DNA of 34,270 nucleotides, from IMG/VR virus record IMGVR_UViG_3300045988_110945, positions 1 through 34,270 of that record, one strand, 5' to 3'. Positions 2,539 through 34,270 of the stretch are shown piece by piece (within the stretch, counting starts at the first letter, position 1; each line of letters opens with the position of its first letter). Origin of the DNA: a virus. The position numbers were made by a program, and so were the translations under genes. The notes below the pieces were generated by a model. That model searched no databases and was not told the DNA's origin. It was given only the letters and a program-made list of their open reading frames with translations.

Positions 2539-3135
2539 TTAGCTTTCATTTGTATCTGACGGGTCAATTCCAAAATAAATCTTCCAATCTTGCTCGTTTT
2601 CTCTGATAGATTTTTCAGCTTCTGCTTTGGTTTTGTAACGTACGATTTCTCCATCATCATAGTAATCAAGTTCACACACGGCGAGCGTTTCACATCCATG
2701 GTCATAATAGACCATCCAGCCGCCTTTTCCATTCTTAAAATCTGGCTTAAACATTGATGTTCGGCATAGTCTGACTTCGGCTAGTTCACGCTCGCGTGCT
2801 TTTTCGCACTCTTCTTCAGTGCGATAAACCCTACCAACCCTATACATCGAAGCGTGCCAGGGGTCTTTGCTCCAAGTAAAACACCCAATTTCTCCGTCCG
2901 AGTAGTGCGACCAGTATTCCTCGCCTATTTTAGGCTTCCAGTGAATACTGTCTGTCGGTTCGACTTCCTCGAACCACTCTGTGAGAATATTTGGAAACTT
3001 TTCAAGCGTCGATTGGGCGTAAGCCATAACACCATAGCCACCATCGTCATAGACCAAAGCACCATATTCAGATATATAGAATAAATCTCCAGCTTTGAAT
3101 GTCGGTAAATCTTTAAGTAGTTTGTAATACTTCAT
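2539..3135 (-). CDS. Hypothetical protein (198 aa) with an apparent internal duplication.
   Basis: AGDLFYISEYGALVYDDGGYGVMAY and GGWMVYYDHGCETLAVCELDYYDDGEIVRY look like two copies of one module, and each is followed by a short Glu/Lys/Ala/Arg-rich stretch. Confidence 0.45.
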   Translation of the reverse strand: MKYYKLLKDLPTFKAGDLFYISEYGALVYDDGGYGVMAYAQSTLEKFPNILTEWFEEVEPTDSIHWKPKIGEEYWSHYSDGEIGCFTWSKDPWHASMYRVGRVYRTEEECEKARERELAEVRLCRTSMFKPDFKNGKGGWMVYYDHGCETLAVCELDYYDDGEIVRYKTKAEAEKSIRENEQDWKIYFGIDPSDTNES

Positions 3136-6463: not shown

Positions 6464-7666
6464 CTAGGCGTTGCCATTTAATAATTCTATTATAGTCTTG
6501 TCGTCCAAATTAGTTAAGTTATTATCGAAGTCTTTTTTCGCATTCAATGCTTTATAGATTGCCGTGTCAATTGTATGTTGCGACTTCAGTTGATAAAACA
6601 CACATCGTTTCGACTGACCGTTCCTGTAAGTTCTACCTTCTGCTTGTGAGTAGTCAATAAAACTGTAGCAAGGGCTTAAGAAAATGGTAGTGTTAAACTT
6701 CTGCAAGTTTAAGCCAGTTCCGCCAGATTGGTATTGCATAATCATCACGTTTTGGTCTGCAAACTTGTCTTTCTTAGCTCCGTACCAAACGCCGTGCTTA
6801 ATACCTTTCTTCTTTAATGCCTCGCTCAACTTCTCAATCGCATTCACGGTGTTGACGAATACCAAACAGTTGTCTAATCCTTCAATCTTCTCAACCGTCC
6901 AATTTATCTTCTCTGGTGCCACCTCAGCAAATTGGCGTAATGCCCAAGTCAATTTCGAAGCGTTATCCAACATATCGCCATCTGAAGTTGTTCTAGTCTT
7001 AAGCATTGAGATGTATTCTTTCCTCTTGACTGGGATGTCTACCTCGATAACTTGACGCTCTGGTAATTCTACAAAGTCTTCTGAACGTCCTCTCAATGCA
7101 ATACCGTTCCACCAATTGGCTAACTCGTCTGTACGGTTATAGCCGACAATCTCTGGATAGCCTTTGTAGCGTTGCTCGACTACATATCGACGATAGAACT
7201 CGGTCTTATTCCTTACCAAGCCTGTGATTTTGGCGTAATTCACTGCGTCTGCCCATTTACTCATTGGTGTGCCACTTAGTAGTGAATACCCCTGAGAAGT
7301 GCGTGAGCAAAGATAAAAAGCTCCTAAGCCTTGCTTGCTTTGGCTGTTCTTAATCCTGTGTGCTTCATCGATAATGATGTAGTAGTCGTCATAATCTGCT
7401 AGGTTGCCCGTCTGATATTTCTGCAAGAAGCTGTAACCCTTGACCTGGAAATCATCGAACTCTAATCCAGACTTCTCCAAATCCAATTCCCAGACCTTAG
7501 TATCTCGAACCGAAGCTGGACAAATAACTAAGACTTTACGTGAACCACTCCTGTAGGCTCTGAATATCGCCATTAAGGTCTTACCAGAACCAACACCTGC
7601 GAAGATATACGGTCTATCGCCTAGTTGCTCTAAATATCGCTCCTGCGATGGATATAAAGATATCAC
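6464..7666 (-). CDS. SNF2-family (DEAH-box) helicase.
   Basis: The P-loop is GVGSGKT and the DEAH box is IIIDEAHRIKN. Motif III is LSGTPMSKW and motif VI is QAEGRTYRNGQ. Confidence 0.8.
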   Translation of the reverse strand: MISLYPSQERYLEQLGDRPYIFAGVGSGKTLMAIFRAYRSGSRKVLVICPASVRDTKVWELDLEKSGLEFDDFQVKGYSFLQKYQTGNLADYDDYYIIIDEAHRIKNSQSKQGLGAFYLCSRTSQGYSLLSGTPMSKWADAVNYAKITGLVRNKTEFYRRYVVEQRYKGYPEIVGYNRTDELANWWNGIALRGRSEDFVELPERQVIEVDIPVKRKEYISMLKTRTTSDGDMLDNASKLTWALRQFAEVAPEKINWTVEKIEGLDNCLVFVNTVNAIEKLSEALKKKGIKHGVWYGAKKDKFADQNVMIMQYQSGGTGLNLQKFNTTIFLSPCYSFIDYSQAEGRTYRNGQSKRCVFYQLKSQHTIDTAIYKALNAKKDFDNNLTNLDDKTIIELLNGNA

Positions 7667-7965
7667 TTAGTTGTTTCTCCTTTCTTACGAATTAGCTTTA
7701 ATACTTCTTCTGCGTTTTCTGGGTATATAAAAAAACTGTCTTGCGACATATTGTTCAATTTTTGGTTCCAGAGGTCTTGTAGCGGTTGATGCTCAGCGTC
7801 TTCTGATTTCTTCCACTCGACAAAACAATGGTAACCATTTGGTGCTAAAAATAGCGTGTCTGGGAAACCACTAGGTACTCCTGGACCCGCTACTAATTGG
7901 ATTATAGTCCATCCACGTTTCTTGAAACGCTCTTGCTCTTTCCTCTTAAAATCCCGCTCTAGCAT
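7663..7965 (-). CDS. VRR-NUC domain nuclease (PD-(D/E)xK fold).
   Basis: GFPDTLFLAPNGYHCFVEWKK gives the PD...E.K signature. There is a 4-nt overlap with the SNF2 gene, which is a common SNF2/VRR-NUC pairing. Confidence 0.65.
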   Translation of the reverse strand: MLERDFKRKEQERFKKRGWTIIQLVAGPGVPSGFPDTLFLAPNGYHCFVEWKKSEDAEHQPLQDLWNQKLNNMSQDSFFIYPENAEEVLKLIRKKGETTK

Positions 7966-7975
7966 ATTATTCCTT

Positions 7976-8071
7976 ATATAGCCCGCATAATGGACAACCT
8001 GGGTGCAAAGGTCTAAAAGAACGAATAGATTATCCCAAGTTGCCCGTTATGCGGGCTATATGCCCGCATAT
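7976..8071. promoter_or_regulatory. Cluster of GCCCGCATA motifs in an intergenic region. There are direct copies at 7981-7989 and 8062-8070, an inverted copy at 8048-8056, and a degenerate copy at 8042. Two of them form a perfect palindrome, ATGCGGGCTATATGCCCGCAT.
   Basis: The repeats were read directly from the sequence. The site lies between the SSB-like gene and the VRR-NUC gene. Confidence 0.45.
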
Positions 8072-8077
8072 TTAGTC

Positions 8078-8686
8078 TTAGAATGGAACTTCCGAGAGGT
8101 CTACGTCTTCACTGTTGTCAATCATTTTTTCAACAGCAGTCTTAGCTTTTTCTTTCGGCTTAAAGCTTAACAAAGAACGCTCGATTGATGGGACTTCTTC
8201 TCCATTTTTGTTAGTATAAGTACGAGTTTCACTTTCTTTTACAGATAGCCAACAAGCAAACTCTTTCCCTGCTTTCTTGCGTTGCTCTAACATCTTAACC
8301 ATTGTGTCAAATAGTTCTTTAGCACTAAGAATGTTGCTCATAAAGTTGCGGGCGTTATCTTTTTTATCCTGCTCGGCGTTATGAACCACCAAGCGGCTAC
8401 AGTTCTCGATAGTGTATGGCAATGCTGCCTCACTTAGCCACATAGTAGCTGTAGCTTTACCATCAGCGTTGCTGACAGTAAACTCCATACCTAGTGTGCC
8501 TGATTTTGCACGAGTTAGCTCAATTTTGTCCACTGAAACTTCGTGAACGCCAAGTCCAAGCCAATTACCATTATTGTCGTTCAAGATGTTTTCCTTCATT
8601 TTAGCAGCTGCATCTTTTGCGACCTTGACGTCGTTATTCCCTAGTTCTTTTAACAACTCTTTCTGCAACTTTTCTTCTTCTGACAT
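8078..8686 (-). CDS. Putative single-strand DNA-binding protein partnering Sak4. It ends in an SSB-like acidic tail, DVDLSEVPF.
   Basis: The C-terminal acidic-PF tail resembles the SSB C-terminal protein-interaction motif. The position is immediately downstream of Sak4. Confidence 0.4.
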   Translation of the reverse strand: MSEEEKLQKELLKELGNNDVKVAKDAAAKMKENILNDNNGNWLGLGVHEVSVDKIELTRAKSGTLGMEFTVSNADGKATATMWLSEAALPYTIENCSRLVVHNAEQDKKDNARNFMSNILSAKELFDTMVKMLEQRKKAGKEFACWLSVKESETRTYTNKNGEEVPSIERSLLSFKPKEKAKTAVEKMIDNSEDVDLSEVPF

Positions 8687-8697
8687 ATTGTCCTCCT

Positions 8698-9300
8698 TTA
8701 TTTATAAAAGTTTACTATTGCCTTGTCCAATTCTTTAAGGTCATTCGGGATGGTGTCGGCTTCAAACATTCCTAGTGGTGTTTTAATGCCTGTACCATCA
8801 GTCCTCACCTTAAAGACGAACTCACCGTCGATAACTGCTGTTTCGATTACCTGATTTGTCAACCCTTCAGGAACGAACTTATCACTTACCATTTTACCAG
8901 TTGTTTTCAACTTCAGTAAGCCTTCGTCGTTTTGCTCGCTGTGAGCCAGGATATAAAATCGCTGGTCTGTGTCTTTCTTCGTAATCAACTCGATGATGTT
9001 GACCACGTTGACTGCCATCTCAGTGAACTTGTCATACCCCTTGATATTAGCTTTCGAAAACTCTTCAAAACTCATAAAGTAGTTGAAGTCGTCAATCACT
9101 ACGATAGGTGCTTTACTGGTTTTAATAGCTGCCGCCAATTCACCATAATTCTTAGCGTGAAATTGCGGAATGTCATTTTTGAACGGTAGTGGTTTACCTG
9201 TTGCTGTGATGTAACCAACGCCGTCAGCTTTCTTAAGATGTCTCAGAGATGAACTTTTACCTGTTCCGCTCCGACCAAGTACAAATGTTAATTGTGCCAT
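8698..9300 (-). CDS. Sak4-like (AAA_24/RecA-fold) recombination ATPase.
   Basis: The Walker A GRSGTGKSS lies near the N-terminus. The protein is about 200 aa and sits between the exonuclease and the SSB-like gene. Confidence 0.6.
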   Translation of the reverse strand: MAQLTFVLGRSGTGKSSSLRHLKKADGVGYITATGKPLPFKNDIPQFHAKNYGELAAAIKTSKAPIVVIDDFNYFMSFEEFSKANIKGYDKFTEMAVNVVNIIELITKKDTDQRFYILAHSEQNDEGLLKLKTTGKMVSDKFVPEGLTNQVIETAVIDGEFVFKVRTDGTGIKTPLGMFEADTIPNDLKELDKAIVNFYK

Positions 9301-9315
9301 AACATAATCCTTTCT

Positions 9316-9675
9316 TTATTGATATTGTTGATACCTTGAGCTTACGTCAGCGGCGCATTGCTCTCCAATTTTTACAAACTCTTGCGTGTGCGACACAAGC
9401 TCTCGCTTGGTCATACCATTATATTTTTGCCCCATCGTGTTACCATAGCAACCGCAATACTCAACAACAATCGGGCTATTTTCTTCAAGACCTAAAGTAG
9501 ACGCCGATTGTTTATAGCAATCTTTCGTTGCCATTAAGAAGAGGTCTTTCTCGGATAGCTTCTCCTCTACAGGGTAATTATGTCCAACGCTAATGAAAAA
9601 ACCTCTGATTGTTACGATAAGCAAAAACGCAAGAAAACTCCACCAGATTTTGGTTAAGGTGTTCTTCATCTTCAT
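9316..9675 (-). CDS. Membrane-anchored/secreted Cys-containing protein (119 aa).
   Basis: An N-terminal signal-anchor (IWWSFLAFLLIVTIRGFFI) is followed by a hydrophilic domain with 5 Cys. The SD is GAGGAG. Confidence 0.5.
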   Translation of the reverse strand: MKMKNTLTKIWWSFLAFLLIVTIRGFFISVGHNYPVEEKLSEKDLFLMATKDCYKQSASTLGLEENSPIVVEYCGCYGNTMGQKYNGMTKRELVSHTQEFVKIGEQCAADVSSRYQQYQ

Positions 9676-9703
9676 CTCCTCGGAACAATTGTGTATGTCG
9701 TCC

Positions 9704-9733
9704 CGTCAGTCGTCCCGAGAGGGTAAACTGACG
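9704..9733 (-). promoter_or_regulatory. Hairpin in the 5' UTR just upstream of the SD of the secreted-protein gene.
   Basis: CGTCAGT...ACTGACG forms a 7-bp stem with an inner TCCC/GGGA stem. Confidence 0.3.
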
Positions 9734-9763
9734 AGATGTGTGTTACGTCAATTTTCATATCTT

Positions 9764-10495
9764 CTAAAATCCTATATCATCTGGTATCACTACTTCTTCA
9801 TTTTCAGTGATACCTTGGTTATTATTCATATATTGTGTAAGCAATTCTGGGTCAAAACTCTTTACTCCTAAGTCGGATAACTCTGGCAAATCTAGTGGCT
9901 CGTGCAATCGCTCGTAAATCTGCTTGATGAGCTCGTCATTCCGCTCGATACGTATGATGATGTAGTGCTGGGTTTTAAGGTTGACTACTATGTAATCTAC
10001 CCAATCAGCTCCAGAAGCCATCATTTGACCCTGAACCTGCAATTCGTGCTTGTGAGGTATTCCATTCTCCATAATATCCATAAAGGTATTATCGCCAACC
10101 ACCTTGCATTCAAGTAGCCCTTTCTTTAAGGTTTTCGCCTCGACTACATTTGCGTCTGGTGTTGCGACGAACCAATCTGATATATAAGAAAATGCCTCAG
10201 ACAATTTGTTGCCAGTGTCTTTCTGGTACACCAGCTTAGCGAAATCTTCAAAATACACACCGTCTGCCATAGCTTTGGTCTGAAAACTATTATAAGTAAC
10301 GCCAAAACGTCGCTCAAACGCTAGTTTTTTCAGATATTCCTTAGCCTTAGCGGTAGGTGTGCCATCTCGCTTAGTTTCGAATAACTCGGCAAGCATACTT
10401 GCGGACGGCTTGCCCGCACGCTCTTTGTACCACTCAGCCGACCGTTGTGGTGCAGTTGATAATGTAAACTCTTTACTATAATCTACCATTCTCAA
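9764..10495 (-). CDS. YqaJ-type (lambda Exo-like) 5'-3' alkaline exonuclease, PD-(D/E)xK family.
   Basis: SAEWYKERAGKPSASMLAELFE is the YqaJ N-terminal motif, and the E.K motif is LLECKVVGDN. Confidence 0.7.
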   Translation of the reverse strand: MRMVDYSKEFTLSTAPQRSAEWYKERAGKPSASMLAELFETKRDGTPTAKAKEYLKKLAFERRFGVTYNSFQTKAMADGVYFEDFAKLVYQKDTGNKLSEAFSYISDWFVATPDANVVEAKTLKKGLLECKVVGDNTFMDIMENGIPHKHELQVQGQMMASGADWVDYIVVNLKTQHYIIIRIERNDELIKQIYERLHEPLDLPELSDLGVKSFDPELLTQYMNNNQGITENEEVVIPDDIGF

Positions 10496-14290: not shown

Positions 14291-14344
14291 GACGGATTAC
14301 AGCTAGGGTTTAATCAATTAAGCAAATATCAGGAGGGGATTAAA

Positions 14345-14536
14345 GTGAGTAGGGTGCTTGTGGTGATGCGGAATAAGGACGTGTATCACTTAACGACAGA
14401 GGAGTTTAAGAGGCTGAGGCGGGCGATTGACGACCATAAGGAGTGGGTCAGTTTGCGGGATTACAAGCTGGGGGACACGGTGCTTGTGAGTCTGAGGCAG
14501 GTCAGTTCAGTGGTGGTGCGAGGAGGCAGTGAGTGA
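14345..14536 (+). CDS. Hypothetical protein (63 aa, GTG start).
   Basis: The SD is AGGAGGGG. Its stop overlaps the next gene's start (TGATG). Confidence 0.4.
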   Translation: MSRVLVVMRNKDVYHLTTEEFKRLRRAIDDHKEWVSLRDYKLGDTVLVSLRQVSSVVVRGGSE

Positions 14537-15867
14537 TGGACGAGGCGACTACAGCGGACGAGTTCCCAACACTTGCCGAAACGGCACGCAACCAGGACGT
14601 GTTGCAATGGTTTTACAAGAGGGTGGTGGAGCATTTTTCCGAGGCACCACTATATCTCAGACGGTCGGAGCATGGGCTGGCTATCCGAGTGGGCGGTCAG
14701 TGGCGGCAATACCGTCGTGGCGAGCAGGTAGCGTTTTGGCGGGATGCGATGCGGGAGTGCCAGCAACTGAGGGATAGCAACTGGTCGACTAAGCGACAAC
14801 AAGCCCTCTGGGATTACTTTATGGTGTATGCTTCAGAGATTACGTTTGACAACAGGCGGTATTTTGAGATGAGGAATGCGGTACTTGACGGGTATACAGG
14901 GGAGTTGGACGAGTCGGAAACCCGCTTTTTGCTACATCCGACTACTCGGTCTTCACAGCTGTCATACAACCCAGAGTACACGCCGACACCAGCTTGGCAG
15001 AAGTGGTATGCGACGATGGACGAGCATCAGCAGGCGGTCAGGGATTGGTCGGTAGGGTCTGCTTTGATTGGTGAGCACGGGCTACTTTTCACGTTTGGTC
15101 AGTCCCGTACAGGGAAAAGTACGCTGGCTGAGGGGCTGGCTGAGGTGCTAGGCGACGGGGCGGGCGTGTTTTCACTGAGTAGGAATTGGGGGCGGTTCTA
15201 CACTCAGCATATGGACAACACGACTTATCTGTATGACGCGGACGCTAAGGGAGCGAAAAATCAGAACAACGACAACTACGGTACGCTGCATTTGATGGCG
15301 AGTGGCGACCCTATCCAGGTGGAGGTTAAGGGTGGTGAGGTGTATCAGACGACCAATTATGGCTTTATTGAGGTGGTTTCTAACGCTCCAGCCACAATGA
15401 GTTTCGAGCAATCGCTGGTTGACCGCGTGCGGTTTTGTCTGTATACGTATATCAGCCCACGCTCTGACGGTGGTCATATGAAACGGCTTATCTTGGCGGA
15501 CAAGCAGGCGTGGCTTAACTACGCGGTCAGTTGTGCCATCAAGCTAGCTAAGGGTGAGGTGGAGCGACCAGCAATCGACAAATACCAGATGTATGGTTGG
15601 GTATTGTGGTTACGCGAGGCTAACACTTATGGTAAAATGTGTATTGAGGAAGGTCGCGTGTTGACCTATCAGGAATACAAATATGCTTATGAGGGGGCTA
15701 ACAGATATATGCTCACGAGGGAAACAGTAGATGCAATGCAAGAGGGTTTCAGGGAGTTGTCGAGGCAATTCGGTGAGGACTTTTTGCGGGTCGACTGGGA
15801 CGAGTACGGGGAGCAGTTGAGGAAAGAATATTATGGCGCAGAAGAAGAAGCTCCAGAACTTTTTTAA
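14536..15867 (+). CDS. Putative SF3-type (D5/P4 primase-associated) helicase/NTPase.
   Basis: The Walker A is FGQSRTGKST. YLYDAD is Walker B-like and IEVVSNAP is a motif C-like SN. An AGGAGG SD lies 9 nt upstream of ATG 14536. Confidence 0.45.
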   Translation: MDEATTADEFPTLAETARNQDVLQWFYKRVVEHFSEAPLYLRRSEHGLAIRVGGQWRQYRRGEQVAFWRDAMRECQQLRDSNWSTKRQQALWDYFMVYASEITFDNRRYFEMRNAVLDGYTGELDESETRFLLHPTTRSSQLSYNPEYTPTPAWQKWYATMDEHQQAVRDWSVGSALIGEHGLLFTFGQSRTGKSTLAEGLAEVLGDGAGVFSLSRNWGRFYTQHMDNTTYLYDADAKGAKNQNNDNYGTLHLMASGDPIQVEVKGGEVYQTTNYGFIEVVSNAPATMSFEQSLVDRVRFCLYTYISPRSDGGHMKRLILADKQAWLNYAVSCAIKLAKGEVERPAIDKYQMYGWVLWLREANTYGKMCIEEGRVLTYQEYKYAYEGANRYMLTRETVDAMQEGFRELSRQFGEDFLRVDWDEYGEQLRKEYYGAEEEAPELF

Positions 15868-16495: not shown

Positions 16496-16644
16496 AAAAG
16501 AAGGTGAATGGGAATGCTCATATAGCACACCCTTGTCCGTATTGCTGGCTGGTACTTTATTCCAAGGGAGCTTTAACTCGTCATCTCAATGATGAGCATT
16601 GGAGAGAGCTGGAAGAAGAGAAAAAGAAGGCTGATGAACAATAA
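16492..16644 (+). CDS. Small zinc-finger protein (50 aa, MKKKVNGNAHIAHPCPYCWLVLYSKGALTRHLNDEHWRELEEEKKKADEQ).
   Basis: There are ATGA overlaps with both neighbours. The CPYC...H...H pattern is C2H2-like. Confidence 0.3.
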   Translation: MKKKVNGNAHIAHPCPYCWLVLYSKGALTRHLNDEHWRELEEEKKKADEQ

Positions 16645-18076
16645 TTTTGTACGTATTGGCGGAGGTATAGTCTTAAGAGCCTATCAGAAGGCTATATTAA
16701 AGGCGTTTGATAACGGTATCCGCTATATCGTGTTATGTTGGTCGCGTCGTGCGGGTAAATCCCTGTTTTCGTGGAACTTACTTATCCGTGAGGCGACTAC
16801 TAAGCCAGGAACATACTGGTATTGTTTTAACAACTACTCGACAGCATATAACGACATTTGGATTGCTCAGACATCAAAAGGTGTCCGCTTCCTCGATATG
16901 ATACCGAAAAATATGATAGTGCGTATGAACTCGGCTAAGCTTGAGATTGAATTGACGAATGGCTCCGTTATTAAGCTTATCGGTATCAACAACGTCGACA
17001 AGTTGGTGGGTGCTGGTCTTATGGGCGTGGTGTTCGACGAGTACGCCGTCCTTAATCCTAATTCAATCGAATTGGTTACAGCTATGCTCGCGGAAACTGG
17101 TGGTTGGCGTGTGATGATTTCAACGCCACGTGGCAAAAACCACTTTTACGAGGAGTATCAGTTTGCCTTGGCTCACCCTGAGTTCGCATTGGCGAACAAT
17201 ATGCACTGCGGTATGGAAGAGGTCGCTCAGTTTATGGCACCTGGTTTTTTGGAACAGGAGCGTCTTAAGATTATCAGCAAGTACGGCAATGACGCCTTAT
17301 ACCAACAGGAGTATATGACGAGTTGGGTTAGTCCTAACTCTGGTTCGGTGTTTGGTGCGTTGACAAAGATTATGAAGGACGAGGGGCGTGTAGCTGTCTT
17401 GCAGGGCGATAGCTCACGACAGTACTATACAGCGTGGGACTTAGGTTCTGCTGACTATACGAGTATCGTGCTTTTCCAGGTTGACGATAAAGGCTTCCCG
17501 ACTGTCCTTGACCATATCGAGAACCGTAACGAGGACGTTACTTGGTACCTCGGAGAGATTAAAGAAAGAGGTTGGCAGGTCCATACACATTTCCTTCCTC
17601 ACGACGCCGCCCACCGTCGAGGTGCTAGAAATGAGAGTTATAAACGGGCGTTGGAGCTTGAGGGGGTTACTAACACGGTGGTGCTAAGCAAGCCAAACCG
17701 AGTGGAGGATAAATTGAACTTCTTGCGTAGGGTGTTTGTCGGGTTGCAGATAGACGAGAGGCTGACGCGCGTTATTGAGTGCTTGGAGAAAATGGAATAC
17801 GAATGGAACGAAAAGCAACATGTCTGGTCATCGAAGCCTACCCACAAGGGCGGGTATAGCGACACCGTGGACAGCTTATGTTATATGGGGCAAGCAATTC
17901 AGAAATATAATATCACTGGTAAAACAGGGTTCTCTCGGGTGTCGATAAAGAACTCTGCGGCAGGGGGCGTCCAAGGACTAAGCAAGAAAGAACAGCTCGA
18001 AAAGTTCCTTGAGGCAGAACTTTCGCTTGGCGGTAAAAAGAAAAAAAGAAAAGACTTTTCACTTTTCAGACGATAG
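16634..18076 (+). CDS. Terminase large subunit (Terminase_6/PBSX type). The start is probably ATG 16634 (MNNNFVRIGG); the ORF is open from 16589.
   Basis: The ATPase motifs are CWSRRAGKS (Walker A) and VVFDEYAV (Walker B). A C-terminal nuclease region is present. The gene is about 480 aa. Confidence 0.8.
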   Translation: MNNNFVRIGGGIVLRAYQKAILKAFDNGIRYIVLCWSRRAGKSLFSWNLLIREATTKPGTYWYCFNNYSTAYNDIWIAQTSKGVRFLDMIPKNMIVRMNSAKLEIELTNGSVIKLIGINNVDKLVGAGLMGVVFDEYAVLNPNSIELVTAMLAETGGWRVMISTPRGKNHFYEEYQFALAHPEFALANNMHCGMEEVAQFMAPGFLEQERLKIISKYGNDALYQQEYMTSWVSPNSGSVFGALTKIMKDEGRVAVLQGDSSRQYYTAWDLGSADYTSIVLFQVDDKGFPTVLDHIENRNEDVTWYLGEIKERGWQVHTHFLPHDAAHRRGARNESYKRALELEGVTNTVVLSKPNRVEDKLNFLRRVFVGLQIDERLTRVIECLEKMEYEWNEKQHVWSSKPTHKGGYSDTVDSLCYMGQAIQKYNITGKTGFSRVSIKNSAAGGVQGLSKKEQLEKFLEAELSLGGKKKKRKDFSLFRR

Positions 18077-19919: not shown

Positions 19920-20753
19920 ATGGCAATTACACCAACAGAAATCTATAGCAATCTTATCGACCAACCTTTCGATGATGAGAGCTACACAAAAGAACTTGAA
20001 GGAAACAACAAAGAAATCGAGTTCAAAAAAGGTTCAAAAGTAGTCAAGGTTCGTACAGTAACCACAACTGGTGCGGTTACAGACCACAATGCGACTCAGA
20101 CTATTTCTCAGCAAATGGCGGGTATCACAAACGTAGACAGTACTATCGCTACTTATACGCTTGACCAGCAAAAAGATATCAAGAAGTTCTTGGACAAGAC
20201 CATCGCCGTAACGAACAACTCTATTGTTGAAGGTGGTAAGATTTTGCACGCTATCGTAGCAGAACAGCTTGTTCCAATGATTGACGCTTACCGATTGGGT
20301 GTCTTGGCGGGTGTCGCTACAACGACTACTCAGAAAGTTACTGCCACTGCGAACGGTGTTGCAGACTTCTTGAAGGCTCGTGCCTACCTGGTTAACGCTC
20401 GTCTTTTCCGTAACAACTGTGTTGCGTATGTTAATACTACGACTGCGGATAACATTCGCTCAGCTAATATCATGTCGCCATTTACTGGTGGTCTTGAGAA
20501 GAGCATGCGAACTGGTGATATCGGTATGTTCTACGGTGCTAAGGTTAAGGAAGTCCCAGCTGACTTGATGCCAACTAAGGTCGGACTTATCCTTGTCAAC
20601 CCAGATGTCGTATCCGCTCCACGTTTCTTGGACGACTCAAAGGTTAGCGAAAGCAACGTAGCCTTTGGTACTTTGGTGCTTGGTTTGTATATGTACACTT
20701 GTGTAGTGTCAACTCCAAAAAACAAGGGTGTCGCTATCGTCGCTACAGCTTAG
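19920..20753 (+). CDS. Putative major capsid protein (277 aa).
   Basis: It has its own strong promoter and SD. Its size, position and composition fit a small HK97-fold coat protein. No motif-level proof is available. Confidence 0.45.
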   Translation: MAITPTEIYSNLIDQPFDDESYTKELEGNNKEIEFKKGSKVVKVRTVTTTGAVTDHNATQTISQQMAGITNVDSTIATYTLDQQKDIKKFLDKTIAVTNNSIVEGGKILHAIVAEQLVPMIDAYRLGVLAGVATTTTQKVTATANGVADFLKARAYLVNARLFRNNCVAYVNTTTADNIRSANIMSPFTGGLEKSMRTGDIGMFYGAKVKEVPADLMPTKVGLILVNPDVVSAPRFLDDSKVSESNVAFGTLVLGLYMYTCVVSTPKNKGVAIVATA

Positions 20754-25439: not shown

Positions 25440-27338
25440 ATGAACATAAAAATTGAAGATTTAATTGAGAAACTAGAACAGAGCTACGACTTTATGCAAA
25501 AGGCGACGAAAGGGTTCGCTGAAAGGAACGAGCAAATCTTTTATCGTAAACCCCCAGCAGGGGAAGTCGATAGCAAAATGGACTATTCCGAGTTGGTGGA
25601 CAACACCCTGTCGTCTTACATAGAGAAAACGCCGAAGAATGTTATTCAAAGGCTACCGACATTCACCGTCGACGCCCACGCACAAAGTAAAGTAGAAGAC
25701 TTGAAATATGAATACATTGCGAACAAGATTATCCTAAGGAACAATACTCCTGAGGGGTATTCGTTGCTACAAAAGCACTGGATAGCATTACGCAACGCTA
25801 TGGCTTTTGGTGCTTGTGCTGTGTATTTCCCATTCACCAGGAATAAGACCGAGTTCACTGTTGGTTTTGAGATTATCTTCTGGGGGGATTTGTTCCCTGA
25901 AGCTTACGCGTCAAGCATTAACAGTGCCAACTATATTCAATTCCGCACAATGAAAACTAAGACTTCTATCGAGAAGCTGATTAACGGCACGGACAAGGGC
26001 GACGCTGAAGACGGCAAATGGAATATAGAAGGATTGAAGAAAGTCCTTGAGTATGGCAAGGGTGCGTCTTTGGGGCGCGAGGAAACAAATCATACTTATG
26101 CATCTTTACTCAACATTCCAGAAGGATTGTATGAGTTGTTTGTTTATGTAGATGACGATTGGATTATCACTTACCATTACCAATCGGCGACTATTCTACG
26201 CGTAGTCAAGAACACCAGCGGTTACAGGCGTGTTTTGGGATTGTATTCAGACTTTGACGGTATAAACATTATGGGTCGTTCTTTGGTCGAGATGGGCTAT
26301 GGTGCACAGCAAGCTTTGACATCACTACTACGCAACTTCATTTACACAGTGGATTACAATACGGAACCTGCTAAGTTTGTGAAGGGTATAGGGCTGGATG
26401 AAGACAACTTCGAACTTGAAAAGGGGAATACGATGTTCCTAAACGACGAAGACGGTTCAATGCAATTGTTGCCGATTGACACGACAGTTATTCAAAACTT
26501 CCCAAGTTTGTTCAGTCTGGTGAAGTCAGTGTTGCTATCGTCATTGCCAAGCTCAAACGACAGCTCTATCTCTGCAGAGGTTGGCGACCCAACTTATTCA
26601 AAGACGCAAGCAGGTGTGAATAGCCAAGACCGTAAGGCAGATATTGAGAACAACTATTATCGAAAGAATTATGAGCAGTTCTTTGAGGCAGCTCTTGAGG
26701 CTCAGATTAACATATACATCTCTGAGATAAGGAAGATAGCTGAGGCGAATGAACAATCCCAGTTGGTTATTAAACTTGATAGTGAATACATAAACCTCAT
26801 AGAGCAGGAAGACCCTTCTCAGATTATAAACGGCGACAGCGTGATTATAGACACCAGTAAAGTTCAGCAGGTGAACATCTCTGTCGATTTCGAAAGTACA
26901 CGTCAAATGGCTAAGGAAGAAGACTTGAAACGATTGAACACATTTATGACAGGGTTCTTTGAAGTCGCTAAGGCAGACCCAAGCGTAGCTAAGGGAGTAC
27001 GAGAAGCACTACCATACTTGATTGAGGAATTAACGAAGAGTTCCAACCTAGAAAGCAGTTCTAAGATTGCTGAAGCAGTCAAGGCGGGATTGGAAACCGC
27101 CAAGCAAGAAGAAGCCGAACAGGCACAACTCGAGCAACAAGCACAACAAGCACAACAAACACAACAGCAGTCTGCTCAGATGGCGGAGATAAAAGCCCCG
27201 TCAGTTTCTATAGCATTTAAGGACTTGCCACCAGCAGGTAAGATACAAGCGGCGGCGAAATATGGCATTCAGTTGACTGAGGCTGACGTAACACCACAAC
27301 CAGCATATCCACAGCCAGAGGAGGTAGAGTATGTATAA
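25440..27338 (+). CDS. Large virion protein (632 aa) with a Gln/Glu-rich helical C-terminus; possible portal, by analogy to the P22 portal barrel.
   Basis: The C-terminal AKQEEAEQAQLEQQAQQAQQTQQQ is glutamine-rich and predicted helical, like the P22 portal barrel. The size is compatible, but the position is atypical. Confidence 0.3.
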   Translation: MNIKIEDLIEKLEQSYDFMQKATKGFAERNEQIFYRKPPAGEVDSKMDYSELVDNTLSSYIEKTPKNVIQRLPTFTVDAHAQSKVEDLKYEYIANKIILRNNTPEGYSLLQKHWIALRNAMAFGACAVYFPFTRNKTEFTVGFEIIFWGDLFPEAYASSINSANYIQFRTMKTKTSIEKLINGTDKGDAEDGKWNIEGLKKVLEYGKGASLGREETNHTYASLLNIPEGLYELFVYVDDDWIITYHYQSATILRVVKNTSGYRRVLGLYSDFDGINIMGRSLVEMGYGAQQALTSLLRNFIYTVDYNTEPAKFVKGIGLDEDNFELEKGNTMFLNDEDGSMQLLPIDTTVIQNFPSLFSLVKSVLLSSLPSSNDSSISAEVGDPTYSKTQAGVNSQDRKADIENNYYRKNYEQFFEAALEAQINIYISEIRKIAEANEQSQLVIKLDSEYINLIEQEDPSQIINGDSVIIDTSKVQQVNISVDFESTRQMAKEEDLKRLNTFMTGFFEVAKADPSVAKGVREALPYLIEELTKSSNLESSSKIAEAVKAGLETAKQEEAEQAQLEQQAQQAQQTQQQSAQMAEIKAPSVSIAFKDLPPAGKIQAAAKYGIQLTEADVTPQPAYPQPEEVEYV

Positions 27339-28288: not shown

Positions 28289-30376
<2,088 letters not shown>

Positions 30377-30430: not shown

Positions 30431-31585
30431 ATGATACCTATTATAGGATGGAAACAAGATAAGCACGTTGGCGGCGGCGGAGGCGGCGGAGGCGGCGGCG
30501 GCTGGGGAGGCGACGCACCTCAATCCAGCGGCGGTGTGTTCTGGCTCGGCGAAGACGGAAACGTTTGGGTGAAGGGTGCAGGCGGCACACACTCAGCAGG
30601 TCGTTGGGACGGAAATACAACTAACTATTGGCAATCACGAGGCTTTTCATTTATCCCAAATCCAAACCCTAGCCGACGAGGTGGCGGCGGTTATGTCAGT
30701 GGTGACGGTGGCTTCAGAGGCGGTTTTGGTGGCGGCGGTGGTTATTCAGCACCTGCGAAGAAACTTGACCAAGACCAGATAAACAGCTTGAATGGCTTAC
30801 TCGGCGTATACGACGCGAAACGAAATACTCAGCGAGAAAAAGCTCGATTGACACACGACGCACACGTCAATGAAAAGCAAGAAGAGCGTACCAAAGAGAA
30901 GAAAAAGTACGACGGCAAGAAACTGTCGACGATGCAAGATTTCGGTATGGCTAAGAATGACACCGATATCAACACCCGAAACACGCTAGAGGGTCTTATC
31001 AGCTCTCTATCGACAATGGGTGTTGGCGGCTCACGTGCATTGGCTCGTCGCATTCTAAGCTCTGCTAACCGCTCGAACCGACAGGCGAACGCAACATACG
31101 CTAAGAACTCACAAGCTCTAGACACAGCTTGGAACGAGTTCGACGCCGCAAACAGGAATGACTTAGCAAAGATTGAAGACCAATACAAGTACGACCTTGC
31201 AGAGGCAGACAAAGAGTGGGGACAGAACCGTCAAAACACTTTGTACAAGATGGCAGACGTTTACAATGCCGCAGACAACCACGGCGAACGAACCCGCTTG
31301 ATGAATGAGGGTAACGGCTTGAATGGCTATATCTCAAACGCTCGTTTCGTCAATCCACAATACACAGGTAAATTGAACGTTATGGCGGCTCCAGAATTGT
31401 CGAGCTACTCACAAGACATCGCTAAATACGATACGTCAGCTATCGGCAACGACGGTACGGAGTTGATTAACCCAGACGGAACGACAACCCCAGGAAATCT
31501 AGCTATCAAAGCCGTTGCGATGAGTGATAAAGACTTAGGTGTCAAGAAGCGAATTGAAGGTGAAGACCCTGTTTACGGAGTTTAA
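30431..31585 (+). CDS. Gly-rich virion protein (384 aa) with a (GGC/GGA)n-encoded poly-Gly N-terminus; tail-fibre or baseplate-like.
   Basis: GGGGGGGGGGGWGG is encoded by a GGC repeat at 30470-30505. A second Gly-rich tract lies at residues 90-115. Confidence 0.5.
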   Translation: MIPIIGWKQDKHVGGGGGGGGGGGWGGDAPQSSGGVFWLGEDGNVWVKGAGGTHSAGRWDGNTTNYWQSRGFSFIPNPNPSRRGGGGYVSGDGGFRGGFGGGGGYSAPAKKLDQDQINSLNGLLGVYDAKRNTQREKARLTHDAHVNEKQEERTKEKKKYDGKKLSTMQDFGMAKNDTDINTRNTLEGLISSLSTMGVGGSRALARRILSSANRSNRQANATYAKNSQALDTAWNEFDAANRNDLAKIEDQYKYDLAEADKEWGQNRQNTLYKMADVYNAADNHGERTRLMNEGNGLNGYISNARFVNPQYTGKLNVMAAPELSSYSQDIAKYDTSAIGNDGTELINPDGTTTPGNLAIKAVAMSDKDLGVKKRIEGEDPVYGV

Positions 31586-31587
31586 TT

Positions 31588-32481
31588 ATGTCAGAAACGT
31601 TAGAAAAGTTCGGAAAAGCTAGTGCTAATAACAAAAAGTCTGAAGCAACTACAGTGAAGACTGCTCGCCAACCTGGCGAGTCAGTCCTCTCCTGTTTTGA
31701 CTTGAGTAGCTTCTCGACAACTCACCCAGTGTTCTTTGTAACCTACAAAAAAATACCAGACCCTGACAATGCAAAAGAAGTAAAAATCATCAATGAAACA
31801 AGCTGGCAAGCCAAGGTCAATCCAGACAATAACACCTTGACGAACCTGACTTTGGCACCAGGGTATACAGATATTGGGAATGAAGTTGGCGATTGCGTTG
31901 AGTGTATTCCAACTGCATTTTGGGCAAATAGTCTTATTGACGGTCTAAATAACTCCTTGGACAACAATGGTAAGATAAAACCAGAGGCTGTACCAAGTGT
32001 CACAGCAGCAATCAAAGAAAAGTCTATCACGGCTGACAAGATAGACTTTACGACTATACCAATGTTTTCAGCTACTTCATCTAAGTGGGAAGTTTTGCCA
32101 CAAAATCAGTTTACTATCGTAAAATACGACAATGTCGCCTATGACACTGCAAAAATGTACGACACGAAGACATTCACGGCTAAAGTACCTAAAGACGGTG
32201 TTTACCATATCGACGCAAGAACAGGTATAGCACAAACTGGCTTCTTCTCTGGATATACCGAATATATAAGCATATTTAAGAACGGCACAATGATTAAAGA
32301 ATCCAATCGCACCCGAGGTACAGATAACGACCGACATTTGCCACGACCAAGTTTATCTGTAGATTTACTCTTAAAAAAGAATGATGAAATCAATATACGA
32401 GCATTCTGTAGCGACCAGCGTAATTACGGTGGCGATAGTACTATCAGCGAATTCAGTATGCGGCTGGTAGGAATAATCTAG
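31588..32481 (+). CDS. Putative receptor-binding (tail fibre/spike tip) protein, 297 aa. The constant N-terminal half ends at the KIDFTT motif (IR-L) and is followed by variable C-terminal domain A.
   Basis: It is the last structural gene before the lysis cassette. IR-L (32036-32054) lies in-frame at its mid-point. Confidence 0.5.
   Translation: MSETLEKFGKASANNKKSEATTVKTARQPGESVLSCFDLSSFSTTHPVFFVTYKKIPDPDNAKEVKIINETSWQAKVNPDNNTLTNLTLAPGYTDIGNEVGDCVECIPTAFWANSLIDGLNNSLDNNGKIKPEAVPSVTAAIKEKSITADKIDFTTIPMFSATSSKWEVLPQNQFTIVKYDNVAYDTAKMYDTKTFTAKVPKDGVYHIDARTGIAQTGFFSGYTEYISIFKNGTMIKESNRTRGTDNDRHLPRPSLSVDLLLKKNDEINIRAFCSDQRNYGGDSTISEFSMRLVGII
32036..32054. repeat. IR-L: ACAAGATAGACTTTACGAC, a perfect 19-bp inverted repeat whose partner is at 32846-32864.
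   Basis: An exact reverse-complement match was verified base by base. Confidence 0.85.
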
Positions 32482-32482
32482 T

Positions 32483-32883
32483 CTATTGTCCAATTGCTAT
32501 CCAGTTAAAGTAGTAAGCACCCTCTAGCCAAGACCCGTCAAAACGACGAATAGTTGCCTTAAATGATGAGTTAGTAATCGCTAATGCACTCATTGACGCG
32601 CCACCCCAGTTATCTTTCGGAGCGTCTGTCCAGTCGTCGCCTGAATTGGGGGTATATCCGATGAATGTACAGACCACCACAGGGAACGTACCGCTCTTAA
32701 ACTGTTTTGGAAATTGTATATTGGCGGTAGCTTCAGACGGGCGGTTATTACCTACTAATATTCTGGCAGTACCGCACTGTATATTCACAGACTTATCGGT
32801 AGTCGTGTCATTGCGCTTTACTTTTACTTTTTCTGCAAGTGGCATTGTCGTAAAGTCTATCTTGTGCGAATTAGTAGACCGCA
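32483..32883 (-). CDS. Inverted alternative C-terminal cassette for the receptor-binding protein (133 aa from ATG 32883; ORF open to 33031). It begins MRSTNSHKIDFTTMPL.
   Basis: It is convergent with the 297-aa gene, with stop codons 1 nt apart. It shares KIDFTT, encoded by IR-R, in the same frame. It has no SD of its own, consistent with a silent cassette. Confidence 0.45.
32846..32864. repeat. IR-R: GTCGTAAAGTCTATCTTGT, the reverse complement of IR-L.
   Basis: Verified base by base. Confidence 0.85.
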
Positions 32884-32939
32884 TATACTGTATTATGCTA
32901 GAATAAGAAAAAGAGATATAAAATAAAAAAAGAGGGTGT

Positions 32940-33317
32940 ATGGACAACACAGACAAAGAAGTATCAGCAAAAGAGTTTGGAGCGTTGGGGGCGGACGTTA
33001 TACATATTAAAGAGAGTGTCGACAGGCACACTGTTACGCTAGAGCGAATTGAAAATATCGCTCGTGCTAACGTTACTCAAGCACAGCTTAAAGCGTACAT
33101 TGCAGAACACGAAAAAGAATCAGAAGAGAAATACGTCAAACGTACTGAAGTCGAGGGCGTTATGAACTTCTGGAGCCTTGTAACAAGCAATTTAGCGAAA
33201 TTATTCGCAATCGCACTTGTAGGATTGGCTATTTACGCAACTAACAACTTAATTCAGCAAAATAAAACCGTTACGGAATTACAAGAAGAAGTTCAACAAA
33301 CAGTAAGGAGGAAATAA
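32940..33317 (+). CDS. XhlA-like lysis-associated membrane protein (125 aa): an N-terminal coiled coil and a C-terminal TM segment.
   Basis: LAKLFAIALVGLAIYATNNL is a single C-terminal TM after a charged helical region. It lies immediately upstream of the endolysin. Confidence 0.4.
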   Translation: MDNTDKEVSAKEFGALGADVIHIKESVDRHTVTLERIENIARANVTQAQLKAYIAEHEKESEEKYVKRTEVEGVMNFWSLVTSNLAKLFAIALVGLAIYATNNLIQQNKTVTELQEEVQQTVRRK

Positions 33318-33318
33318 T

Positions 33319-34270
33319 ATGATAGAAAAAGCACTAGCTTGGTTTTACGCACGTAAAGGTCGAGTTTTTTATTCAATGGAAAGTCGAAATGGTCCAAATT
33401 CGTATGACTGCTCAAGCTCTGTATACCACGCATTAAAAGAAGCAGGTCTTTTACCTGCTAGTTACTGGATTGGCAATACAGACACACTATTTGACGCTCT
33501 GGAAAAGAACGGCTGGGTACGACTGTCTGAGGACGCTAACGGCGAAGCAGACACACAACGTGGAGATGTCTTCATCTGGGGTATTCGTGGCAATTCAGGT
33601 GGTGCATTAGGCCATACAGGAATGTTTGTGGACGCAGATAATGTCATTAACTGTCGCTATCAAGCAGGTATTGTAATAGACAATCACGACTGGCTCTGGA
33701 GTGCCTCAGGCTGTCCTCCATACGCATTCTATCGATACGTAGGCAAACCAAAAGAAGCTAAGCGTGTAGCACTTCCTGAGGTGTATTACGCAGATGAAGT
33801 AGCGACTGTATTCGACTTACGACAGATTAGATGCAACCGACTAATTGATAATTTCGATTGGGAGGACAACGGCATACCTGCGTCTGTAGCAGTGAGAACA
33901 GATAAAGACGGCTATCTACTAGATGGTGAGATAAATACAGGAGATTACTTCCGAGTTGTCGGCTCAACGGAGATATTAGACGAAACTACCGAGAACAACA
34001 AACGCTATCTACAACTGAAAATGGCAGATGACGGTATTTGGGTATTGGCGGAGCGAGTACGTGAATTAGCGAATGGAGATGCAGGTACACCACGACCGCA
34101 ACCACGCCCTCAGCCACAACCAGCACCAAAGACACCAGAATTGCAACAAGCACCTCAAGTCAAAGAAAAGCCACAGGAGCAACCGCTAGCACCACAACCA
34201 ACCAACGAAGACGTGATGAGGTCTATCGGCAAATTAAGTCAAGATATCGCTAAGAATAAAAGTTTATTAG
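33319..34270 (+). CDS. Endolysin, Amidase_5 family (Pal/LambdaSa2-like N-terminal catalytic domain). It continues across the junction to 102, giving a total of about 350 aa.
   Basis: GPNSYDCSSSVYHALKEAG and GHTGMFVD match the Amidase_5 catalytic region. The SD is AGGAGG. The frame is open to the window end. Confidence 0.65.
   Translation, partial: MIEKALAWFYARKGRVFYSMESRNGPNSYDCSSSVYHALKEAGLLPASYWIGNTDTLFDALEKNGWVRLSEDANGEADTQRGDVFIWGIRGNSGGALGHTGMFVDADNVINCRYQAGIVIDNHDWLWSASGCPPYAFYRYVGKPKEAKRVALPEVYYADEVATVFDLRQIRCNRLIDNFDWEDNGIPASVAVRTDKDGYLLDGEINTGDYFRVVGSTEILDETTENNKRYLQLKMADDGIWVLAERVRELANGDAGTPRPQPRPQPQPAPKTPELQQAPQVKEKPQEQPLAPQPTNEDVMRSIGKLSQDIAKNKSLL
34216..34270. repeat. A 55-bp terminal duplication identical to bases 1-55, marking the circularisation overlap of a complete genome.
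   Basis: Exact identity between the window start and end. Confidence 0.9.

Follow-up and report, generated by a model that had tools for sequence, protein, structure and literature searches.

The window, a stretch of 34,270 nucleotides corresponding to positions 1 to 34,270 of IMG/VR virus record IMGVR_UViG_3300045988_110945, contains a tail-fibre gene whose 3′-part lies on a DNA segment bounded by an exact 19-bp inverted repeat, called the core below. Very probably, this locus is a working two-state inverton in the tail-fibre gene of a phage of Saccharibacteria (TM7), operated by a catalyst that we infer. Reciprocal crossing-over inside the core would flip a 792-bp segment, by which the 156 N-terminal residues ending with KIDFTT would be joined in frame either to a C1q-like head, giving the present protein of 297 residues, or to an H-type-lectin-like head, giving one of 276 residues; the head not joined would be left without a start codon. 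The likely purpose of the switch is to alternate receptor specificity.

Structure of the Invertible Segment

The 19-mer ACAAGATAGACTTTACGAC is located at 32036–32054 of the plus strand and its exact reverse complement at 32847–32865, with 792 bp between the two cores (32055–32846). The original prediction, made from the letters of the window, recognized the same exact repeat but put its right arm at 32846–32864 and the interval at 791 bp; the match itself holds, and the two figures are replaced by those given here. The arms reach 26 nt at 92% complementarity (32036–32061 and 32840–32865). A chance origin had been regarded as very unlikely, and indeed two matches of the 19-mer arose in none of 100 dinucleotide-preserving shuffles.

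In the plus-strand gene (31588–32481, 297 residues), the core begins with the second base of a codon and specifies (A)DKIDFTT, of which DKIDFTT corresponds to residues 150–156; in the convergent minus-strand open reading frame (ORF), it encodes HKIDFTT in the same codon phase. The stop codon of the former, TAG at 32479–32481, and that of the latter, at 32485–32483, are separated by 1 nt. Both the common phase and the spacing of the stop codons, claimed beforehand, agree with the codon positions checked here.

The locus begins with the constant N-terminal part of the fibre gene (31588–32035, plus strand, residues 1–149 of ORF 31588–32481), which stays put and provides the start codon and the ribosome-binding site for whichever head faces it. 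The left recombination core (IR-L, 32036–32054, plus strand, 19 bp encoding (D)KIDFTT, with the arm to 32061 at 92%) is followed by the expressed head cassette (32055–32481, plus strand, residues 157–297 including the stop codon), which resembles a C1q/TNF-like jelly roll by Pfam, profile, and Foldseek comparisons. Convergent with this active head is the silent head cassette (32483–32846, minus strand), an H-type-lectin/Gp53-like tip of 120 residues after KIDFTT, and the segment is closed by the right recombination core (IR-R, 32847–32865, minus strand, with the arm from 32840), the exact reverse complement of IR-L. The silent-side outer flank (32866–32939) is a non-coding spacer shared with the upstream region of a holin-like gene at 32940–33317. 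As had been foreseen, inversion would fuse the constant N-terminus in frame to the other C-terminus: the flipped state would yield a fibre of 276 residues, and public proteins of exactly such make-up exist (e.g., P0118 and P0093).

Inversion among Related Phages

Forty-eight relatives were retrieved from IMG/VR by protein similarity, a set less biased than those retrieved with the 19-mer, and 207 core sites in 142 loci were classified by the length of the upstream ORF and the type of the silent flank. Two arrangements are found among the relatives: the N-terminus with the C1q head on the plus strand and the H-lectin head on the minus strand, as in the window, or the N-terminus with the H-lectin head on the plus strand and the C1q head on the minus strand. 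Indeed, in loci L008, L009, and L010, the H-lectin cassette is fused in frame to the N-terminus. Two loci from two samples, L003 and L010, belong to the window's lineage with ~96% protein identity to the window. Their left flanks of 4448 bp and right flanks of 3289 bp (7.7 kb) are identical, and their 827-bp core-to-core segments match at 826 of the 827 positions only after reverse complementing; thus the inversion and one base are the sole differences in 8.5 kb. The same inversion relation, with a different head pair that includes head family 3, holds between L011 and L021.

Four lineages are distinguished among the 142 loci, with N-termini only ~30% identical between lineages; the window belongs to lineage 1. 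Reciprocal combinations of active and silent heads occur in each of the four. In lineage 1, (C1q, H-lectin) and (H-lectin, C1q) were found three times each, in addition to the family pairs (0,3) and (3,0), and in lineage 4, which has a short upstream ORF of 57 residues, both orientations are present. The predicted flip is therefore seen in the window's own lineage, and both orientations in three further lineages: the segment inverts in nature. More than two cores per locus were never found, even when 3 mismatches were allowed. The three types of silent flank found in the different lineages share no similarity, even immediately beside the core.

The silent cassette is not an independent gene. 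It had been proposed to be devoid of expression signals of its own, and this view stands: an in-frame ATG at 32882–32884 of the silent flank is not conserved, as most relatives within lineage 1, and the other lineages, lack it, and an in-frame start is present in only 6 of ~19 copies of the window's flank type and in none of the copies of flank type 3. In addition, no minus-strand promoter-like site was found upstream of the silent cassette.

Both Orientations in Single Samples

Both orientations coexist within single samples. Twenty-one contigs end 0–36 nt inside the core. In each of the metagenomes OEAO01 and ODUJ01, an active-flank contig and a silent-flank contig end in an identical 55-mer consisting of the core and 36 nt of one cassette, the result to be expected from a k = 55 assembly graph if a single cassette end adjoins both outer flanks within one sample. 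Likewise, contigs of 366 kb and 98 kb from Nanosynbacter sp. TM7-076 both end at the core followed by AAT. In BNJT01, a PromethION (long-read) saliva assembly (PMC7782811), two related contigs (250 kb and 34.8 kb) match in reverse orientation over the flanks, at 99.7–99.9% with an indel further upstream, and in forward orientation over an 829-bp segment, at 100%. Since the arms of 19–27 bp are shorter than the assembly k, the two orientations are not assembly artefacts.

Alternative Heads of the Fibre

Translation from each core gave five head families. The lineage-1 N-terminus, which is 95–99% identical across public proteins, carries the C1q-type head or four further families, and the point at which the heads switch, in public proteins and relatives, is always directly after KIDFTT.

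By profile and fold comparison, the active head looks C1q-like and the silent head H-type-lectin-like. For the former, the Pfam family C1q was matched at E 1.4e-3, below the cut-off, and gC1q trimers were matched by Foldseek at E 3e-4 from a low-confidence model; the family as a whole gives weak matches to C1q and cerebellin C1q profiles, and one source labels a homologue “C1q domain.” The silent head of the window matches both H_lectin and Gp53-like_C of Pfam below the cut-off; within its family, H_lectin is matched by 9 of the 11 members (best E 2.4e-8) and Gp53-like_C by 8 of the 11. The structures matched by the H-lectin head in Foldseek are the R1/R2 pyocin fibre foot, AP22 gp53/gp54, and Helix agglutinin, and a profile search against PDB gave no match for this head. 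AlphaFold models were those of database homologues, with predicted local distance difference test values (pLDDT) of 56 and 42 (60–80 for the heads alone), and the fold matches therefore serve as supporting evidence only. Resemblance of both C-termini to fibre tips, a point left for checking in the original prediction, is thus borne out by Pfam and Foldseek.

Conservation and Decay of the Core

The exact core is found at both arms of most of the 48 relatives retrieved by similarity. Its 19 bases are invariant among 26 distinct arm contexts of the H-lectin type, in which third positions vary in 8 of the next 15 codons, and the codons just 5′ of the core (KEKSITA) vary synonymously even within lineage 1. 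By this comparison, the core is constrained as DNA. When compared with three unrelated silent flanks, identity ends on the outer side at the same nucleotide, and the window's silent flank (sil1) resembles a decayed copy of the coding flank. The fixed outer boundary and the decayed sil1 flank together suggest that the site is defined and minimal. Identity between arms extends over 16–27 bp, and positions +1 and +4 past the core are polymorphic in both head families. It was also considered that the 19-mer might occur at unrelated places in related phages; in the relatives, it is always at the fibre-head junction.

On the coding side only, a 9-bp dyad, AAGTCTATC ... GATAGACTT, lies across the outer flank and the core (32013–32041), and a match of 9/10 was reached in none of 300 shuffles. 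As a part of a general site, this dyad was rejected: neither the silent flanks nor lineage 4 contain it, and it is probably not a part of the site.

There are variant cases. In the divergent lineage of L015 and L019, the core is replaced by AACATCGATTTTACGTC (NIDFTS), with five changes that are the same in both arms. L015–L020 are IMG/VR 3300045988 contigs of this divergent lineage, for which one orientation was seen, and in L016 and L017 the arm match is only 15 bp. Locked or decaying versions are also found in nature: L001 has a single core without a second cassette, L022 and L034 have a single core and a C1q cassette cut to its last 39 residues, and the arms of L014, L042, and L046–L048 contain 1–3 mismatches. 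In the window and the other two-arm loci of lineage 1, both arms are exact.

A metagenome-assembled genome of Saccharibacteria, CALFPG01, holds two further cases. On its contig 3 (L050), the core is at the contig end, with a siphovirus-like tail module and an endolysin of 570 residues, and its contig 1 (L055) ends at the core with a lineage-2 fibre N-terminus. As judged from such contigs, phages of unrelated types may have the switch or its heads in common.

Search for a Recombinase

Searches with Pfam and PHROGs and inspection of unannotated ORFs revealed no serine, tyrosine, or DDE recombinase among the main ORFs of the circular genome, and the Resolvase family was not matched in Pfam and PHROGs scans of all main ORFs. 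A tblastn search with Hin gave nothing below E 8 in the window and 142 loci, and likewise no match in 97 further lineage-2 loci; tblastn with two tyrosine recombinases found none in the window. Temperate relatives, in turn, carry one Xer-like tyrosine recombinase 1.4–3 kb downstream of the switch. In lineage 2, this is a protein of 264–315 residues encoded ~3 kb downstream of the switch at the prophage edge, and lineages 3 and 4 have a different Xer-like recombinase. Such an enzyme is present in none of the 24 loci of lineage 1. The earlier statement that neither an invertase nor a tyrosine recombinase is encoded is therefore right for the window's lineage by Pfam, PHROGs, and tblastn, and does not extend to the wider family. 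When ~20 kb further upstream in a lineage-2 genome was walked with Hin and two Xer-like seeds, no second recombinase was found. An integrase attachment site as a second copy of the core was also considered and rejected: the best core-like sequence near the integrase matches at 12/19, and a third core-like site is found in no locus.

In the integrase–yetF intergenic region of L142 (15241–15500), there is a G+C-rich, structured-looking stretch, GGGGAGGCGCACCTCACC..., which by its appearance could be an attachment site within a small RNA gene.

Another protein of the window, 198 residues in length (2539–3135, minus strand), has no match in Pfam, PHROGs, PADLOC, or PDB, and contains the conserved motifs WFEE..EPTDSIHWKPK and YRTEEECEKARERELAEVRL. 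Homologues with 47–65% identity are encoded in the early region of 24 lineage-2 loci and of L077 (lineage 3/4), and this family is the only early gene widely common to lineage 1 and the temperate lineages bearing the switch.

Possible Mechanisms of Inversion

Provided that the switch is active, the catalyst that we favour, without granting it quite an even chance, is a tyrosine recombinase acting in trans, either a host enzyme or the Xer-like recombinase of a TM7 prophage, in a conservative site-specific reaction. It is preferred because the mixtures of orientations break assemblies, the boundary of the core is sharp and conserved, and prophages are reported to be widespread in oral TM7 (PMC7739484). 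Temperate TM7 prophages with the same switch and lysis module would be the source of the Xer-like enzyme.

Several observations weigh against this account or against frequent flipping in the window's lineage. No enzyme is tied to the core. Between lineages 2 and 3, the Xer-like recombinases share only ~25% identity, with the core being the same; in L142, the lineage-2 recombinase, encoded at 14294–15241, is located at the prophage edge beside the host gene yetF, like an ordinary integrase, and in the DNA around it the best core-like sequence matches at 12/19, which is the level of chance. The internal dyad symmetry that Xer or Cre-type sites usually have is missing from the core. In host chromosomes, the exact 19-mer was found only within phage fibre genes, and the site is thus not shared by any host inverton. 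Metagenome and genome loci retrieved by a search for the exact 19-mer give no measure of how well the core is conserved. Finally, for lineage 1 no mixture within a sample was seen, with 0 of 13 arms broken as compared with 14 of 97 in lineages 2–4, a difference that is not significant. Flipping in the window's lineage could be rare; a lower flipping rate in lineage 1 is not claimed from these counts.

Short-homology recombination on the arms of 19–27 bp, by the phage module of Sak4, SSB (single-stranded DNA-binding protein), YqaJ, VRR-NUC, and SNF2 or by host RecA, is a possible route that we regard as rather unlikely, again on the premise of an active switch. The recombination module is present with strong matches (phrog_2872, E 2e-52; YqaJ, E 8e-15) in a genome without a recombinase. 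Here, the universal core would be kept since co-infecting phages could also swap head cassettes through it, and heads 91–98% identical are indeed found on N-termini 31% identical, which indicates that lineages exchange at or near the core. However, annealing proteins alone do not invert DNA between inverted repeats, and close homologues of Sak4 are found only in lineage-1 contigs by a search that finds close relatives only; Sak4 was accordingly dropped as a factor shared by all lineages. The 19 bp of the core is no longer than the shortest pairing length known to be efficient for RecA and Red-type systems. The range of arm identity and the polymorphic positions +1 and +4 fit variable crossover points, and L015 and L019 use a different core, again the same in both arms; yet homologous recombination would favour longer arms, and the outer boundary is fixed at the same base with the sil1 flank decayed up to it. 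Similarly, the fixed differences between samples in lineage 1, in which no mixture within a sample is seen, are compatible with this route, but the assembly-breaking mixtures, including that in a named TM7 culture, imply that the segment flips at a rate usual for site-specific invertases.

It is improbable, even for an active switch, that the phage encodes an invertase of an unrecognised family, for which the 198-residue protein at 2539–3135 is the only lead. Its homologues in the 24 lineage-2 loci and L077 are suggestive, since little else outside the heads and lysis genes is common to these phages, and its failure to match Pfam, PHROGs, PADLOC, or PDB leaves room for a new enzyme. On the other hand, it has no recognisable nuclease or recombinase motif and no conserved Ser, Tyr, or Asp–Glu pattern, it does not adjoin the switch, and an anti-defence or host-takeover gene would be expected just as much to be shared among TM7 phages.

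Also improbable is a relic, that is, a switch acquired together with the lysis module from temperate relatives that has ceased to flip in this lineage, the orientations in lineage 1 being separate acquisitions. Heads and lysis genes >90% identical between lineages with structural genes of ≤30% identity, the decayed or locked versions (L001, L022/L034, and arms with 1–3 mismatches), and the missing mixture in lineage 1 would suit it. Separate acquisition, however, cannot yield the identical flanks and inverted identical segment of L003 and L010, whose only differences in 8.5 kb are the inversion and one base. Moreover, the window and the other two-arm loci of lineage 1 have exact arms on both sides (L001 having a single core), and lineage 1 includes another reciprocal pair with head family 3 (L011 and L021).

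Comparison with Known Systems

In the G segment of Mu, the C segment of P1, and the P segment of e14, which are inverted by Gin, Cin, and Pin, respectively, a constant N-terminus is combined with either of two C-termini on an invertible segment, the inverted repeats lie in the coding sequence, one state is expressed while the other stays silent, and the host range is switched. The locus in the window is similar in that inverted repeats inside a fibre gene bound a segment with alternative C-termini. In contrast to these systems, a serine invertase is found neither beside the switch nor elsewhere in the genome, and the segment, 0.8 kb instead of 3 kb, contains two heads only, without assembly or chaperone genes. 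The core lacks a gix- or hix-like dyad as found by a dyad scan, unlike the 26-bp crossover sites of Gin and Hin with their two dyad-symmetric half-sites, and the host is a bacterium of the candidate phyla radiation (CPR) rather than an enterobacterium.

The shufflon of R64, with the recombinase Rci and 19-bp sfx sites, is alike in another respect: asymmetric in-frame repeats of ~19 bp swap C-terminal tips on a constant N-terminus, and in the temperate relatives a tyrosine recombinase gene is near the switch. However, there are exactly two cores and one segment here instead of the multi-segment arrangement of the shufflon, the Xer-like enzyme of the relatives looks like an integrase at the prophage edge and is absent from the window's lineage, and the switch is in a phage fibre, not in a conjugative pilus. 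The likening of the locus to the Mu G, P1 C, and shufflon architectures in the original prediction is thus apt functionally and fails in detail, as a serine invertase and a dedicated adjacent recombinase are lacking, the segment holds no chaperone gene, and the cores never number more than two.

Programmed inversions that alter genes have been surveyed widely, and tail-fibre genes are an enriched class among them (Huang et al., 2020, PMC7672463; Milman et al., 2023, PMC9881135). As in those cases, the inverted repeats lie in convergent, partly homologous genes and the orientation varies within a species; the finding of both orientations in near-identical genomes and in single samples, and of an inactive copy without expression signals, fits the pattern. 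The hsdS and prophage fibre invertons are typically defined with a nearby recombinase, whereas the present segment is flipped in a genome without one. A few Saccharibacteria genomes have hsdS invertons associated with an invertase (PMC7672463). A case of a CPR phage is contained in neither PMC9881135 nor PMC7672463, and Saccharibacteria are not mentioned in PMC9881135. Finally, diversity-generating retroelements, such as that acting on Mtd of BPP-1, also diversify a receptor-binding tip in a programmed manner; here, neither a reverse transcriptase nor a template repeat is involved, and the outcome is two discrete, unrelated folds instead of a single mutagenized one.

The Phage Genome and its Host

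The ends of the window overlap by an exact 55-bp direct repeat (1–55 = 34216–34270), and the contig is therefore a circularly assembled, complete genome of ~34,215 bp. Its G+C content is 44%. The phage is podovirus-like, with genes for a terminase (16589–18076), a major head protein (19920–20753), a P22-like portal or adaptor (25440–27338), and a protein of 1520 residues. Two holin-like genes were identified, one of which is that at 32940–33317, followed by an endolysin gene with Amidase_5 and ZoocinA_TRD domains, which starts at 33319, crosses the contig ends, and finishes near position 100. In two temperate relatives, an Acb2/Tad1-hairpin-like gene, possibly for an anti-CBASS/Thoeris sponge by this resemblance, is inserted between the endolysin and the holin (L054:4017–4346 and L142:12781–13110); the window has no room there. 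Both genes 5′ of the fibre gene hold homopolymeric runs and match no family: a 695-residue protein (28289–30376) contains a run of S10, and a 384-residue protein (30431–31585) contains G11 and further Gly-rich stretches.

The leftward arm is occupied by replication and recombination genes, including those for Prim-Pol, an HNH endonuclease, an AAA ATPase, and an SNF2 helicase. A complete phage recombination module is encoded on the minus strand at 6464–10495, consisting of the SNF2 helicase (6464–7666), a VRR-NUC/resolvase-like (Holliday-resolvase-like) protein (7663–7965), SSB (8078–8686), a Sak4-like annealing protein (8698–9300), and a YqaJ exonuclease (9764–10495). Homologues of Sak4 with 74–83% identity are present in contigs of many other metagenome samples. 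Isolated phages gave no match either in a near-identity search with the locus or in a search with the fibre protein, and the terminase is ≤30% identical to that of any isolate. Probably, the phage is virulent, without an integrase.

An exact search with the 19-mer in a collection of 185,579 species genomes, in which ~4 matches are expected by chance, found nine stretches, eight of which are in Candidatus Saccharibacteria or Nanosynbacter; the single match in Nitrosotalea is probably due to chance. The same endolysin, with 92–96% identity, is encoded on the TM7 contigs that matched the 19-mer, and one relative is a prophage within a 349-kb TM7 scaffold, adjoining ordinary host genes. On these genomic grounds, the host is Candidatus Saccharibacteria (TM7), Nanosynbacter-like. 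A Streptococcus host, first guessed from the Amidase_5 and ZoocinA_TRD domains of the endolysin, was dropped when the genome scan pointed to Saccharibacteria.

Biological Implications

To our knowledge, phages of CPR/Patescibacteria have hardly been studied by experiment, and we know of no established mechanism by which they choose their hosts. Among the papers searched, neither a description of this switch nor a paper linking Saccharibacteria, phages, and fibre inversion was found. In human oral metagenomes the switch is common, the core being present in 84 contig stretches, and five interchangeable receptor-binding heads can be joined at one well-defined 19-bp junction. Within the epibiont–basibiont pair, each of the two unrelated heads might be suited to a different cell surface.

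The switch provides a clean, PCR-testable programmed inversion in a genome without a recombinase gene. Tentatively, and with some doubt, it may be regarded as an “orphan inverton,” in which a probably virulent phage without an integrase keeps a functional host-range switch and the recombinase is borrowed from the host or a prophage, or is of an unknown family. With a borrowed catalyst, which hosts a lytic phage can infect would depend on the prophages or host enzymes in the cell; with a new one, the 19-bp core and the enzyme would make a compact recombination tool. Either way, the two junctions allow the state of the phage in oral metagenomes to be read at once.

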